Origin: a virus
IMG/VR virus record: IMGVR_UViG_3300031954_000001
Location: 1-64,000 of that record
Strand: one strand, 5' to 3'
Length of the DNA stretch: 64,000 nucleotides
The position numbers and the translations under genes were made by a program. Shown piece by piece: positions 2,547-58,597 of this stretch. The number at the start of each line of letters is the position of its first letter. Position 1 is the first letter of the stretch. The notes under the pieces were generated by a model. The model ran no database searches. It worked only from the letters and a program-made list of their open reading frames with translations, and was not told the origin of the DNA.

Positions 2547-2567
2547 CGCTCCCACCGCTGGGAGGTT

Positions 2568-2649
2568 TCACCCGCTAGCACGGTTGACGGGACGGCCACG
2601 CGCCACGCGCGCGTGGCCGGCCGTGAGCTGCAGCTAGCACGCTCTCACC
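2568..2649 (+). ncRNA. Repeated multi-stem RNA motif, copy 2
   Basis: Same conserved blocks as 2024-2108; begins just after palindrome 2549. Confidence 0.6.
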
Positions 2650-2690
2650 CGCGCGTGTGATACGCGCATAACGTCCCATGGGAGGACGCA

Positions 2691-3932
2691 ATGACCAGCA
2701 CCAAGCCGGCCACCAAGGCCAGCACCAAGGCCAGCACCAAGCCGGCCACCAAGGCCACCGCGCCCAAGCGCGTGAGCGAAGCGGCGTACAACCGCGCGGT
2801 CAAGTCCGCGCGCGCCGCGTCCAACCGCGCCGGCGAGGCGAATTGGATCATCGGCGATGCGGCGCTGGCCGTAGCCACCGCGTACGGTGAGAGCCGGCTA
2901 GAGCGGTTCGCCGACGACATCGGTTACAAGATCGGCACCGTGCGCAACCTGCGCACCTGCGCGGCCAACTACCCGCCGGCGGAGGTCGCGCGTGACCTGC
3001 AGAGCCACACCGTCTACATGGTGTTCGGCAAGCTTGACGAGCGGTTCACGCTGATCGAAAACGGCAACGACGGCCAGCCGTGGACCGTGAGCGCGGCGCG
3101 CGCGTACGTGGACGGTCCCGCCGTGGTCGTGGATCCTGACGGCGACGGCGACGGCGACGGCGACGGCGACGGCGACGGCAACGGCGCCGGCGACGCGCCG
3201 GTTGACGCGCTTGCGCAGGCTGACGGCGAGGTTGACCGTCTGTTCGGCGAACTGACCAAAGCCATCACGGCAGCGAACAAGATCCGCCGCGCACAGAAGA
3301 TGGACCTTTACCCGCGCGTCGCACAGCCGGCGCCGCAGGCCAAGGACACCAAGCCGGCCACGCCGGCCAAGGCCAGCACCAAGGCCACCGCGCTCCCGAT
3401 GCTGCGCGAGGACGGATCAGACCCGTTGCTGGACGCCGTCGCGGCCAAGCTGGCCGACGTCACGCCGGCCAAGTGTGACGCTCACGGCGTCGCACACAAG
3501 CCGGGTAGCAAGGCCGCGCAGGCATGCGCCGACGCGCAGGCCAGCGTAACCGTCGCCGAGCCGGCCACGCCGGCCAAGCCGGCCAAGCCGGCCAAGGCCA
3601 CCAAGCCGGCCACGCCGGCCAAGGCCACCGCGCCCAAGGCCACCGCGCCCAAGGCCACCGCGCCCAAGGCCACCGCGCCCAAGGCCACCGCGCAGGCCAA
3701 GCCGGCCACGCCGGCCAAGGCCACCGCGCGCAACACCTCGCCCAAGGCCAGCACCAAGGCCACCGCGCCGGCCACGCCGGCCAAGGCCAGCACTCGCGCG
3801 CCGCGTACCTACCGGCAGAGCGACGCGGACCTGATCGCGCTGCAGGCGGCCAACCCCGCGCTGGCCGAGCGCATCGCGCAGCGTCGCGAGCAAGGCCGGC
3901 TCGCCACCGCCGCACGGGTGAACGGCCGCTGA
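2691..3932 (+). CDS. DNA-binding protein: LmbU-like HTH region plus histone-like KATAP repeats and DG tract
   Basis: GGAGG RBS; WIIGD..YG....GYKIGTVRNLR resembles the LmbU-family WxLGDW..YG...QTLRNY pattern; low-complexity Lys/Ala/Pro tails. Confidence 0.65.
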   Translation: MTSTKPATKASTKASTKPATKATAPKRVSEAAYNRAVKSARAASNRAGEANWIIGDAALAVATAYGESRLERFADDIGYKIGTVRNLRTCAANYPPAEVARDLQSHTVYMVFGKLDERFTLIENGNDGQPWTVSAARAYVDGPAVVVDPDGDGDGDGDGDGDGNGAGDAPVDALAQADGEVDRLFGELTKAITAANKIRRAQKMDLYPRVAQPAPQAKDTKPATPAKASTKATALPMLREDGSDPLLDAVAAKLADVTPAKCDAHGVAHKPGSKAAQACADAQASVTVAEPATPAKPAKPAKATKPATPAKATAPKATAPKATAPKATAPKATAQAKPATPAKATARNTSPKASTKATAPATPAKASTRAPRTYRQSDADLIALQAANPALAERIAQRREQGRLATAARVNGR

Positions 3933-3953
3933 CCTTCCCACCGCTGGGAAGAT

Positions 3954-4041
3954 GCCTGCGCGTAGCACTGAGAGCCACGCTGCCGGGCGATCGTGGCCGG
4001 CCTAGGGTGATGACCTAGGCCGGCCAGCCCGACGCGCAGGC
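3954..4041 (+). ncRNA. Intergenic three-way-junction RNA structure or terminator
   Basis: Outer 10-bp stem 3954-3963/4032-4041; perfect 13-bp inner stem 3994-4006/4014-4026. Confidence 0.5.
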
Positions 4042-4107
4042 TGGCCGCTGGCCGGCCACCGCGCGCACCGTACCGCGCAGGCTGGCCGCTGGCCGGCCAC
4101 CGCGCGC
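4033..4107. repeat. 34-bp direct repeat x2
   Basis: cgcgcaggctggccgctggccggccaccgcgcgc at 4033-4066 and 4074-4107. Confidence 0.9.
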
Positions 4108-4176
4108 CAAACCTCCCACCGCTGGGAGCAACCGACCCCCTACCCGCGCCACGCGCGCCCACGATCGGAGGATCCG

Positions 4177-4443
4177 ATGACCGCCGCTACGCTCTACCGG
4201 CCGGCCGGCTATGGCCTGACCGCCTACGTGCCAAGCGGACCGCTCCGCGCGGGTGACATCCTGACCAGTCCGCGCACGGGTCAGCGGTTCGTGTTCCGCT
4301 ACGCGGTCTCGCGCACGACCGCCACCGCGTTCGGCAAGATCGCGGTCTCGCCGATCCCGCTGGACTCCATCAGCGGGACGCCGGCCGACTACACCGTAAA
4401 CCTCTACGTCATCGCGTTCGGCGCCCACCTCAAGGTGGGCTGA
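4177..4443 (+). CDS. Hypothetical protein
   Basis: GGAGG RBS, high GC3. Confidence 0.75.
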   Translation: MTAATLYRPAGYGLTAYVPSGPLRAGDILTSPRTGQRFVFRYAVSRTTATAFGKIAVSPIPLDSISGTPADYTVNLYVIAFGAHLKVG

Positions 4444-56485: not shown

Positions 56486-56514
56486 TTGGCCTGTGCAGCT
56501 GTCTGCGCTATACT
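56486..56514 (+). promoter_or_regulatory. Promoter with palindrome over the -10 box
   Basis: TTGGCC-17 bp-TATACT; inverted repeat tctgcgctatac..gtatacgcaga. Confidence 0.5.
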
Positions 56515-56587
56515 AGCTGTATACGCAGAACAGACCAAGAGATCCGATCAAGGTCACCGAATCCCCGAAAGGAAGGGCATCGGAAAC

Positions 56588-57892
56588 ATGCACCAGCAAA
56601 CCATCGAGGCCAGGAACGCGGAACTGGAAGACGTTCTGGTGATCCTGCAGGAGCAGCGGGCGCGACGGCTTGACGTCGTGGTCCGCCACCACATGATCGA
56701 CGCCCACGGCGGTCAGATCCTCGTCCGCGCCGGAGACTCCACCCAGTGGGTCAGCGCCGAGGGAGTCACCTCCGCGGCCGGCGTCTACCGGCCCACCGCG
56801 GTCGCCGACGAGGGCCTGGCCGGCCTGCTCGGCGTGGACGGCGGGTTCCTGAAGAAACTGCGCCGGCTCGACCCTGGCCGCACCGACCTGTGGGACGCCA
56901 TCGTCGGCGGCTTCCTGCACGGCGGTCACGAGGTCATCGACGGCGAAGACCGCAACTACCCGCCCTACGACGGCGCGATCCTGCTCCGCCTGCTCAAGGG
57001 CGACGAGGAGACGGACGGCGTGCTGCGCGCCGCGCTGTCTCCCCGGTACAAGATCATCGACAACCTGGACGTCCTGCTCGCCGTGATGGCCGGGCTCCGC
57101 GACGCCGGGGTGGACGCCTACCCGGACGTCTCCGACCTGACCGAGCGCCGGATGCACGTCCGGTTCGCGGTCCCCGGGATCGCCGCGCTCGCGCCGCTCC
57201 TGCTGGAAGGCTACCGGTCTCCGTTCGACGGACCCGGCGGCATCAAGCGGGCCGGGAACATGCGGCTGGACGTCGGCCGCTTCGGCCGCGACTCCGAGGG
57301 CCTGCAGCGGGTCCTGGCCGCCGCTCGCCATGAGGGCAAGGAATACCCGCCCGGCCAGGAGCCCATCGTGTTCGCCGGGATCAAGGTCACCAACTCCGAC
57401 GTGGGCGAGGGTGCCCGGTCGATCGCGCCGGAGATCATCATCCAGATCTGCGGCAACCGGTTCACCCTGGCCGCCTCGGCCGACCGCGCGGTGCACCTGG
57501 GCTCGTCCAAGGACGAGGGCGTCATCCAGTGGTCCGCCGAGACCATGGAGCGCGAGCTGCAGCTGATCACCAGCCAGGCCAGCGACGCGGTCAGGACCTT
57601 CCTGACTCCCGAGTGGTTCGCCGGCAAGGTCGCCGAGATCGAGGCTGAGGCCGGCGCTCCGGTGGACAAGGCCGAGGAGGTCATCCGGGACGTCTCCCGG
57701 CAGGCCGGCTTCACCCAGGGCGAGGAGGCCGACATCCTGGCGCACTTCCTGCGCGGCGGCAAGTACACCTCCGGTGGCGTGGCCAACGCGATCACCTCGG
57801 TGAGCCAGACGCTGGAGTCCGCGGACCGAGCGGCCGAGCTGGACGCCAAGGCCATCCCGGCCATGGCCCACGCGGCACGGCTGGCCGGCTAA
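56588..57892 (+). CDS. DUF932/DUF945-like phage protein
   Basis: RAALSPRYKIIDNLDVL...NSDVGEG....P......CGN. Confidence 0.7.
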   Translation: MHQQTIEARNAELEDVLVILQEQRARRLDVVVRHHMIDAHGGQILVRAGDSTQWVSAEGVTSAAGVYRPTAVADEGLAGLLGVDGGFLKKLRRLDPGRTDLWDAIVGGFLHGGHEVIDGEDRNYPPYDGAILLRLLKGDEETDGVLRAALSPRYKIIDNLDVLLAVMAGLRDAGVDAYPDVSDLTERRMHVRFAVPGIAALAPLLLEGYRSPFDGPGGIKRAGNMRLDVGRFGRDSEGLQRVLAAARHEGKEYPPGQEPIVFAGIKVTNSDVGEGARSIAPEIIIQICGNRFTLAASADRAVHLGSSKDEGVIQWSAETMERELQLITSQASDAVRTFLTPEWFAGKVAEIEAEAGAPVDKAEEVIRDVSRQAGFTQGEEADILAHFLRGGKYTSGGVANAITSVSQTLESADRAAELDAKAIPAMAHAARLAG

Positions 57893-57896
57893 GCCC

Positions 57897-58490
57897 ATGC
57901 AGGACATCCGGATCGGCGAGCTGATGAACGGCCCGCAGGTGCTGTACGACCTGCTGGCCGCCATCCAGCTCGCCGGGCCGGAGCCGGACCCCGGCCTGGC
58001 CGCCGGACCGGACCCGGTCAGCGAGCAGGTCACCTTCGTCACCGACGAGCGGGACGAGAAGCGGGTCGCCGCCATCGTCCCGGTCTGGGTCGGCGAGGCA
58101 CACCTGGAAGACACCGTAGGCGCCATCCTCGGCGCCGTTGGGAGCGATATGCCCGAAACCGGCCAGCCCGAGTCCGGAGAGCACGGGCACGAGCTGCATG
58201 CGCGGAACATCGGCCGCGTCTTCACCGCCGACGATGACGAGATCGCCGTCGATCACCTGTACGACCACGACTCCGAGCCGTGCCCCAACTGCGGCGGCAA
58301 GTGCATCACCGCCGGGCTCGTCGGCCTGGTGCTCAACACCGAGTCGGCGATGCTGACCCCGGACGAGGCGCTGCTGCTGGCCGACCGGCTCAAGCGCGCC
58401 GCCGACCTCGTCCTGGAGACCCTGGAAGACCCGCCCGACCTGGAGCGCGAAGCCGCCCGGTTCGGGATGGGAGAAGGCTCGCCCGGATAA
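57897..58490 (+). CDS. Hypothetical protein
   Basis: Codon bias; CPNC. Confidence 0.75.
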   Translation: MQDIRIGELMNGPQVLYDLLAAIQLAGPEPDPGLAAGPDPVSEQVTFVTDERDEKRVAAIVPVWVGEAHLEDTVGAILGAVGSDMPETGQPESGEHGHELHARNIGRVFTADDDEIAVDHLYDHDSEPCPNCGGKCITAGLVGLVLNTESAMLTPDEALLLADRLKRAADLVLETLEDPPDLEREAARFGMGEGSPG

Positions 58491-58498
58491 CACGACGT

Positions 58499-58539
58499 GC
58501 GCCCGCGCCGGGCAGAGCTAGGCTCCCCGGCGCGGGTGC
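58499..58539 (+). terminator. Hairpin before palindrome 58547
   Basis: gcgcccgcgccggg/cccggcgcgggtgc. Confidence 0.5.
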
Positions 58540-58597
58540 CACCACCCTCCCACCGATGGGAAGGTTCGCAGAAGAACAGGAACAGGAGACAGTACCT

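Follow-up and report, generated by a model that had tools for sequence, protein, structure and literature searches.

The first 64,000 nucleotides of the genome record of an uncultured high-GC actinobacterial phage carry 22 exact copies of a 16-bp inverted repeat, YTCCCA-N4-TGGGAR (YTCCCANNNNTGGGAR; hereafter the dyad), which punctuate its operons. The stretch analysed (the window) comprises bases 1–64000 of a 108,794-bp IMG/VR record (IMGVR_UViG_3300031954_000001, here G000) with a G+C content of ∼70%. A first-pass annotation of the window had described the dyads as a genome-wide cis-acting system with no identified partner protein, and this description is upheld. They form a real, strongly non-random and evolutionarily maintained system of cis elements, of a kind that was known before but has never been explained; as far as the compared sequences indicate, what is new here is a clade-wide series of dyads with changing letters. 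The reading that we favour, and to which we give about an even chance, is that the dyads are docking sites in double-stranded DNA at which a symmetric dimer of a sequence-specific protein binds; this protein would most likely be encoded by the phage and would co-evolve with its sites.

Sequence and symmetry of the dyad

The word was found at the 22 positions originally proposed and nowhere else in the window, compared with a mean of 0.01 and a maximum of one occurrence in 100 dinucleotide shuffles. The whole 108.8-kb record contains 24 copies, the two beyond the window being located at 88526 and 90241. For the ten-base core TCCCA-N4-TGGGA, the numbers of perfect, one-mismatch and two-mismatch matches are 24, 2 and 31, against 0, 3.0 and 45 in shuffled sequence; imperfect matches thus do not exceed chance, and the dyad has no degenerate copies. 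The spacer is restricted to the same six tetranucleotides that had been listed before, with CCGC in six of the window copies, CCAG and CCGA in five each, and CTGG, TCGG and TCAG in two each. The centre has the form YYRR in 18 of the 24 copies, and its middle dinucleotide is a pyrimidine–purine (YpR) step in all 24, as it is in 29 of 32 copies of the corresponding dyad of the relative G001 and in 13/13, 9/9 and 6/7 copies in other related genomes. The GC content of the dyads is below that of the genomes that carry them.

The palindrome itself had been thought to be oriented with transcription, which does not hold for the core. The core is symmetric, and direction is carried by the flanks alone: among the 18 copies of one operon of uniform direction (2549–27689) both orientations of the centre are represented, by five CCAG to two CTGG and by three CCGA to two TCGG, with the flanks fixed. 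Aligned by local gene strand, the flank-extended logo spans 24 bp, with G-A-M-C before and C-A-W-C after the core (for example the 24-mer GAAC-CTCCCACCAGTGGGAG-CAAC); the A at position −3 is present in 22 of the 24 copies and that at position +18 in 20. The left and right flanks are not mutually complementary, so that the element as a whole points along the direction of transcription. The asymmetry of the flanks had been recognized correctly; their proposed inversion at minus-strand genes is clear at 43408 and partial at 34249. Because the arms are invariant while the centre and the flanks vary, selection appears to act on the letters of the arms and not merely on their pairing, and selection of this kind calls for a trans-acting reader.

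Placement within operons

According to our own codon-usage gene calls, 19 of the 24 copies are fully intergenic, in a genome of which at most 16% is intergenic (binomial p = 1.8e-11). Of the window copies, six start exactly 2 nt behind a TGA and nine are no more than 7 nt from a stop codon. The next start codon usually follows 21–50 nt downstream of the dyad behind a strong ribosome-binding site (RBS; GAACAGGAGAC), and in short gaps the distance between the dyad and the RBS is fairly constant at 8–10 nt. The copies accumulate in the rightward early block (2.1–31.7 kb), which holds 18 of them, ten within 4.5 kb (2549 to 6995, in agreement with the ten noted previously in the first 7 kb); the other three strand blocks contain two each. 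Spacing is irregular and only 24 bp are conserved.

The six copies (all on the plus strand) that begin 2 nt after a TGA are those at 2549–2564 (centre CCGC; after the open reading frame, ORF, 2142–2546, followed by an ∼85-nt structured repeat and 126 nt before the start at 2691), 3935–3950 (CCGC; after gene 2691–3932), 12237–12252 (CCAG; after 11707–12234 and 30 nt before the start at 12283), 14877–14892 (CCGA; after 14476–14874, with a hammerhead-like element beginning 5 nt downstream), 20054–20069 (CCGA; after 19725–20051 and 21 nt before the start at 20091) and 51676–51691 (TCAG; after 51206–51673). Slightly further from the stop, also on the plus strand, are 5970–5985 (CCGC; 4 nt after the TAG of 5390–5965), 5326–5341 (CTGG; 6 nt after the stop of 5047–5319 and 48 nt before the start at 5390), 23396–23411 (CCAG; 7 nt after the TAG of 22960–23388) and 4461–4476 (CCGC; 17 nt after the stop of 4177–4443). 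Four plus-strand copies are best described by the start that they precede: 4113–4128 (CCGC; 48 nt before 4177), 4985–5000 (CTGG; 46 nt before 5047, heading an ∼65-bp unit of dyad, C/A-rich leader and RBS), 27674–27689 (CCAG; 21 nt before 27711) and 58547–58562 (CCGA; 35 nt before 58598, with atypical flanks).

Three further copies coincide with gene ends. That at 4818–4833 (+, CCGC) occupies the last codons of ORF 4508–4843, its GGGAG lying 6 nt before the ATG at 4840; that at 6677–6692 (+, CCAG) lies in the C-terminal tail of ORF 6472–6720, 50 nt before the gene for a conserved 552-residue protein, at a position where relatives have their own dyad; and that at 43408–43423 (−) has the TGA of gene 43414–43704 (−) in its centre, lies 23 nt before the GTG at 43384 and shows the consensus flanks on the minus strand. 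Five copies are inside reading frames, mostly in the first 25 or last 20 codons: the three reported earlier, at 6980–6995 (+, TCGG; variable N-terminal part of gene 6743–8401, where it reads LPSVGA), 8452–8467 (+, CCGA; codons 20–25 of gene 8394–9968) and 10337–10352 (+, TCGG; codons 18–23 of ORF 10285–10518, which has a homologue in the related locus L080), together with 16660–16675 (+, CCAG; 3′ part of gene 16372–16716) and 34249–34264 (−; last eight codons of gene 34239–34520 on the minus strand).

Copies are missing from the non-coding left end (1–2100), from the divergent region near 49.2–49.3 kb, from the start of the structural block near 106.5 kb and from the two convergent junctions, near 31.7 and 68 kb. 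By their placement, the dyads are punctuation within operons and neither operon promoters nor operon terminators. Intrinsic terminators were rejected: the hairpins are weak, no T run follows them, and none of the seven terminator-like sites in 1–20000 is a dyad copy. Promoters that each start the gene downstream, possibly hairpin promoters of the N4 kind served by a phage-specific transcription machinery, would account for an element of ∼24 bp that is uniform in each genome, specific to each lineage, oriented by its flanks, densest in the early region and placed upstream of genes with short leaders. We nevertheless regard promoters as very unlikely, as no copy heads any strand block, several copies lie within genes or their last codons and only the flanks are asymmetric. 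Six-frame searches of the record also found no sigma-70 region 2 and no T7-type RNA polymerase (PF00940), the latter a weak negative because the model gave no signal in any control genome; most large ORFs are orphans.

Dyads in related phages

Relatives were collected through an alignment of the conserved 552-residue Cys-rich early protein (gene 6743–8401), which yielded seven viral and 32 metagenomic loci and then six whole records; the protein has hundreds of metagenomic homologues, many of them on contigs of 110–166 kb. Nearly all of the longer relatives have an over-represented dyad of 14–17 bp of their own. The word TTCCGR-N4-YCGGAA occurs in G002 (13 copies), in G003 (nine copies) and in loci L083–L087 and L103 (4–8 copies per 3–8 kb). 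G001 carries ACTGCC-N4-GGCAGT (32 copies, 21 of them in a terminal 15-kb early block), G405 GTTAC-N4-GTAAC (seven copies), L102 CTACAG-N5-CTGTAG (13 copies in 9 kb), G406 CAGGC-N5-GCCTG (11 copies) and the closest relatives, L080 and L081, an imperfect GTCCGAC-TA-GTCAGAC (two or three copies). No dyad was found in the related record G407. The half-sites of the closer lineages are one step apart (YTCCCA, TTCCGR and GTCYGAC), and relatives as close as 60–68% identity in the conserved protein already differ in their dyad.

Geometry and placement recur with these words. In at least 12 of the G001 copies the palindrome opens with the final A of a TGA or TAA stop; about 10 nt beyond the palindrome comes the RBS, and the dyads are enriched in intergenic DNA with p = 1.9e-14. 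In at least eight lineages, the gap upstream of the 552-residue protein gene contains the dyad typical of that lineage and, after it, a leader poor in G and rich in C and A; an orthologous gene of G000 (34239–34520) and G002 (108893–109156) has in its C-terminal tail the dyad of the respective genome, that of G002 being of the TTCCG type. The L102 centre, like that of G000, is present in both orientations (GAAAG/CTTTC). The dyad is therefore conserved as a kind, with letters that are specific to the lineage. An intragenic copy upstream of a DYYHF motif was considered as a conserved site and discarded, being found only in L011, L012 and L013 and absent from L083–L086 and L103.

The comparison also brings out gene gain, loss and movement at the dyads, so that these could be recombination or cassette sites, at which co-infecting relatives exchange gene cassettes, or selfish mini-palindromes that copy themselves; their uniformity would then stem from spread and not from regulation. 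Three small ORFs lie between copies 5970 and 6677 of G000, where L081 has a single gap with one dyad; a small Cys-rich ORF precedes the gene for the 552-residue protein in G000 and follows it in L012, with dyads at the junctions; near-duplicate units of ∼65 bp (4985–5049 and 5326–5392) bracket one gene; and copy 8452 is within an in-frame insertion of ∼25 codons that is missing from the L012 homologue. G000 and G001 have only about 20 proteins in common, with early regions punctuated in both, so the punctuation persists while the punctuated genes turn over. A PD-(D/E)XK nuclease and an SNF2 helicase are encoded by the phage, and indels between sites are also seen in Cluster O mycobacteriophage genomes (PMC4351075). 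Nevertheless, we judge such an origin to be decidedly unlikely. Neither a tyrosine integrase nor a serine recombinase was found in six-frame searches of the record, in which the controls for both gave signals, and 16 bp is short for homologous recombination. The flanks are unlike target-site duplications, each side keeping its own consensus with no pairwise match, and neutral copies would mutate, yet the arms are free of substitutions while the centres vary. With ∼24 bp conserved, no target-site duplication and background frequencies in host-type genomes, mobile palindromes resembling repetitive extragenic palindromic (REP) elements or miniature inverted-repeat transposable elements (MITEs) were rejected, the conserved part being too small for known units of either class. 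Use of the dyads as cassette sites is compatible with a docking-site role as a side effect.

The same six-frame searches, with a control that gave a signal, found no ParB (PF02195), and a parS/ParB centromere array was accordingly set aside. CRISPR arrays or solitary repeat units were likewise rejected as an explanation, given the irregular spacing and a conserved length of 24 bp compared with repeats of 28–37 nt.

Two relatives display repeats of other kinds. G406, the record that includes L015, contains a CRISPR-like array at 77127–78700 (23 copies of a 36-nt repeat with a 72-bp period) and six solitary copies of this repeat at 14159, 15377, 47475, 49465, 53114 and 70373; the repeat is unrelated to the dyad. 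In the distant relative L017, six CGAAC-N4-GTTCG words, whose pattern is that of the LexA box of actinobacteria, stand together in a single gap between genes (9112–9256).

Occurrence outside the phage clade

A pattern scan of IMG/VR with the extended motif gave one unrelated chance match, and a scan of 185,579 species genomes (one per prokaryote species; 596 Gb) gave two chance matches in the same conserved coding stretch. Matches in L005, L009 and L010 were dismissed as true copies, being due to chance or to a conserved coding stretch. A phylum-wide sample of 401 Actinomycetota genomes has the core at background level, with 0–6 occurrences per genome, except in G104 and G013; this tally includes four unpublished genomes (G395, G052, G243 and G022) with one background match each, and the conclusion does not depend on them. 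G013 has 13 core copies with a different centre. G104 was rejected as a carrier, as its 27 copies of TTCCCACCGGTGGGAA are the centres of an unrelated palindromic repeat of ∼66 bp. These 27 perfect palindromes are dispersed in the G104 genome (e.g. L027–L046), are mostly found at gene 3′ ends and are REP-like.

The dyad word is not found in the host-type genomes searched, the true host of the phage not being known, and the equal frequency in host chromosomes that would have spoken against a phage system was not encountered in these genomes. This bears on a further explanation, in which the dyads are host operators, each phage lineage having acquired from its own host the sites of one of that host's regulators. 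The different words of lineages that possibly infect different hosts would be accommodated in this way, and the cluster of LexA-box-like words in L017 can be cited in its favour. However, the extended motif is absent from the species genomes apart from the two chance matches, the core stays at background in all but the two Actinomycetota genomes named above and the word changes already between close relatives, which makes host operators highly improbable.

Reading of the dyad in DNA or RNA

As RNA, the dyads have fold energies of −6.4 to −10.8 kcal/mol with z scores of −1.96 to +0.20 and are no more stable than shuffled sequences. Punctuation at the RNA level, with a hairpin after the stop codon that is read by a sequence-specific RNA-binding protein or nuclease, protects processed mRNA ends or insulates translation, is possible if unlikely. 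Several observations are in its favour: nine window copies are within 7 nt past a stop and 20–50 nt before the next start, the flanks follow transcription and are inverted on the minus strand, G-poor C/A-rich leaders come after the dyads and both arms change jointly between lineages. In G406, moreover, the conserved short dyad comes after a longer hairpin, and the stem of this hairpin covaries from copy to copy. Joint change of the arms does not discriminate, since it is expected under DNA and RNA models alike.

Set against these are features of the dyads themselves. The outermost pair is C..G in 13 copies, T..G in six, C..A in four and T..A in one; the unpairable C.A combination on the sense strand is not avoided, and the L080/L081 dyad also carries one, so the counts fit independent half-sites. 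No compensatory or G.U variants occur among the 24 and 32 copies of G000 and G001, and the centres do not belong to the stable tetraloop classes. A loop-reading protein is excluded by the occurrence of the loop as either of two reverse complements within one operon (G000 and L102), and cleavage at the five in-frame copies would destroy the mRNA.

Rfam models at their gathering thresholds found nothing. Below threshold, a full-length match to Hammerhead_II (RF02276; 30.7 bits where gathering requires 37; E = 0.014 over the 30 kb searched) spans 14898–14964 (+), between dyad 14877 and the RBS of gene 14985; its core reads CUGA-a-CGA, with one extra base. This element, 5 nt after the dyad, can be counted in favour of RNA punctuation. 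It would also make a second cleavage signal beside copy 14877 unnecessary, as a hammerhead-like element is already there. The intragenic copies, and the ribozyme candidate adjoining one copy, speak against a Cas6-type cleavage site.

A dimer on double-stranded DNA is favoured by the invariant arms, by the weakness of the hairpins, by a centre that is not read and by a central step that is YpR in nearly every copy. From these features we infer a reader that is a protein and that reads DNA rather than RNA; a dimeric reader would treat both arms alike and ignore the orientation of the centre. A reader of RNA hairpins fits less well, as such proteins usually read loops or bulges.

Possible effect of binding

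Bound sites at cistron boundaries would act on RNA polymerase as it travels through the operon, and the outcome could be a stoperator-like road-block with early shut-off, or the insulation of single cistrons. Control of transcription through the operon is the most economical proposal because the sites are within operons and densest in the early operon. Among the options offered by the first-pass annotation (a road-block array, an mRNA hairpin tag or cassette sites) the evidence favours the first without settling the matter, and lends some support to the last in the form of one indel and one transposition.

A number of points weigh against this docking-site reading. Pfam and PHROGs searches of about 100 ORFs assigned almost no family and left nearly all of them as orphans, and the best candidates for the reader are weak. 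The absence of copies from the promoter-rich left end (1–2100) and from divergent regions means that the dyads are not classical operators. Because an integrase, a serine recombinase and ParB were not found, a role in lysogenic silencing of the stoperator type is unsupported in the recorded part of the genome. Placement 0–7 nt after stops, the steady 8–10 nt to the RBS and the transcription-oriented flanks would be expected of an RNA-level element as well, and the probable hammerhead ribozyme 5 nt from copy 14877 suggests that intercistronic RNA processing may occur.

Identical sites might also serve as points at which gene cassettes are gained, lost or moved. An extension of the docking-site proposal, which we consider quite unlikely, is that the reader and its address word co-evolve clade-wide in uncultured actinophages and jointly define the borders of exchangeable single-gene early cassettes. 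If this were true, the dyads would amount to a control network inside the operons of a virulent phage and, at the same time, to a lineage-specific code that sets which relatives can swap early genes, functionally between stoperators, promoter-early stem-loop (PeSL) cassettes and integron cassettes and without any of their proteins. Sites that act as road-blocks or cassette borders would explain the timing and reshuffling of the orphan early genes and could supply orthogonal protein–site pairs for high-GC hosts. The series of changing words with constant geometry and placement offers a handle for finding the reader by covariation.

Candidate readers

All candidate readers are weak. Of the five helix-turn-helix (HTH)-like binders suggested initially, DNA binding gained some support for 2691–3932 and for 30620–30982 (HTH_31 with E = 0.005, below the cutoff); the ORFs at 30351 and 54401 matched no family and that at 50040 gave a sub-threshold match to DUF6192. 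The speculative candidate 2691–3932 (+) is the first large early gene. In its product a conserved helix-rich HTH-like domain (residues ∼27–140) precedes an acidic linker, a long C-terminal helix and tails rich in Lys, Ala and Pro; in the predicted model the HTH-like helix pair comprises residues 49–58 and 62–74, with predicted local distance difference test (pLDDT) scores of 83–90. The family was found only in G000, G002 and G003, whose half-sites share TTCC, and the putative recognition helix reads IGTVRNLR in G000 and YRTVLDLR and YKTLINYR in G002/G003. A fold search with the domain model gave no significant PDB match, and PDB sequence searches with six proteins gave nothing significant. Additional candidates are the product of 22643–22963 (+), with a Phage_zn_bind_8 zinc finger (25.0 bits; cutoff 24) and homologues in G002 and G003, as a DNA-binding protein, and that of 40227–40823, with a sub-threshold ribbon-helix-helix match.

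The 552-residue early protein and a peptidase-like protein are unlikely readers, since both are universal and present even in the dyad-less G407; the AlphaFold model of the former is poor in its most conserved part and the Atlas contained only unnamed viral clusters. The DNA methylase (34517–35821) was discarded as a shared reader, having no homologue in the relatives. The adjacent early proteins 2142–2546 and 2691–3932 both contain long Lys/Ala/Pro-rich repeats (KPATPA and KATAP), which recall the tails of actinobacterial nucleoid proteins.

Gene content and other repeats

The window covers the early and replication genes. The tail genes (encoding a 2656-residue tape measure protein, minor tail proteins and a head–tail adaptor) and an endolysin gene are on the minus strand at about 70–100 kb of the record, and a tRNA array occupies its right end. 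CheckV estimates the record to be 52% complete, which is probably too low given the rating of 100% for a related 122-kb record. A megablast comparison of 20 kb with GenBank phages and a single-protein scan of IMG/VR with the polymerase as query gave no match. One 1434-residue ORF (35811–40115, −) combines a primase, a central helicase-like part and a family-A DNA polymerase (PolA); its nearest relative in a named phage is Pas55 of Actinoplanes phage phiAsp2 (37.6% identity, 99% coverage), followed by proteins of Streptomyces phages, in which the primase and polymerase halves are separate genes.

A free-standing homing-endonuclease gene at 43723–44244 (−) shows a NUMOD4 match at 7.8e-14, a sub-threshold HNH_3 match and a C-terminal HTH_3-like part. 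Its third-position G+C content (GC3) is 0.53, compared with ∼0.9 in its neighbours, and codon-usage gene calling had overlooked it; G002, G003 and G406 have homologues. A phage Lsr2-like protein is encoded at 53818–54423 (+), its dimerization domain matching at 1.8e-07. The RBS context GAACAGGAGAC is unusually long and conserved at about 20 gene starts across the record, and ACAGGAGA occurs 17 times in the record, each time upstream of a called start.

Other repeats are concentrated towards the left end. At the extreme left end (60–200), a second dyad, GTTAG(C/T)-N3-GCTAA(C/G), is present in five closely packed copies, a cluster reminiscent of an iron-box-like or terminal protein-binding array; the relative L012 likewise has TTAGC-N3-GCTAA in repeated form. 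They are followed by tandem GCCGGGAGGGTGGCTCA-like repeats of ∼15–17 bp (200–450) and by at least five dispersed TCTGACCTGCGCAAAC-like words (470–2110), in a 2.1-kb stretch with no credible called ORF. An ∼85-nt unit (CACCCGCTAGC..GGTTGACGGGA, with a 9-bp GGCCACGCG/CGCGTGGCC stem and GGCCGTGAG) occurs three times, at 2024–2108, 2568–2649 and 5988–6070, and two of the three copies begin directly after a dyad copy.

Comparison with known systems

To our knowledge, no reader or function has ever been shown for iterated exact dyads at phage gene boundaries. Several better-understood systems share part of the pattern. The stoperators of Cluster A mycobacteriophages (the sites of L5 gp71) are asymmetric sites of 13–14 bp that are bound by the immunity repressor of these temperate phages. 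They resemble the G000 dyads in being dozens of identical short sites in operon-internal gaps, with an orientation tied to transcription and lineage variants that co-evolve with the binder, and they are the best mechanistic model for the proposed road-block. In contrast, the G000 core is a perfect dyad that takes its orientation from the flanks alone, and the record yielded no integrase or repressor. The 41-kb temperate Streptomyces phage phiC31 has many copies, mainly early, of 17-bp conserved inverted repeats (CIRs) bound by the phage repressor; these are associated with early promoters, whereas the G000 dyads avoid promoter regions.

The PeSL cassettes of T4-type phages combine a stem-loop with a sigma-70 early promoter. 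As in G000, small early genes of a fast-changing region are bracketed one by one by a recurring intergenic module, with apparent modular shuffling; at the G000 dyads no sigma-70 promoter was predicted, in a scan that was uninformative, and the conserved part is only a dyad of 16–24 bp. The RNase III sites of the T7 early region and the REP elements are long, stable, imperfect stems defined by structure. Like the dyads, they place hairpins between cistrons, are denser in the early operon and may protect 3′ ends, but the G000 stems are weak, with 5–6 bp, and invariant in sequence.

The dyad had been matched to no recognized sequence element, but a close analogue has been published, namely the 17-bp dyad repeats TGTTCGG-N3-CCGAACA of the Cluster O mycobacteriophages, Corndog and its relatives (Cresawn et al., 2015; PMC4351075). 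These have invariant arms and a variable centre with no consistent orientation, are present in more than 30 copies and are not found in the hosts; their authors read them as binding sites for dimeric regulators (PMC4351075). Both elements belong to actinobacteriophages, reach more than 20–30 copies per genome with invariant inverted arms and a variable centre, mix short intergenic gaps with positions at gene ends, are associated with indels bounded by two copies and are not found in host genomes or other phages. The geometry (7+3+7 compared with 6+4+6) and the word differ, making them the same kind but not the same element. The G000 dyads are more often intergenic (19/24 compared with 14/34) and, unlike those of Cluster O, hug the upstream stop, have flanks oriented with transcription and pile up in the early region. 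Finally, the Cluster O genomes are all close relatives that share one word, whereas here the kind extends over a deep clade of uncultured phages whose words differ in their letters.

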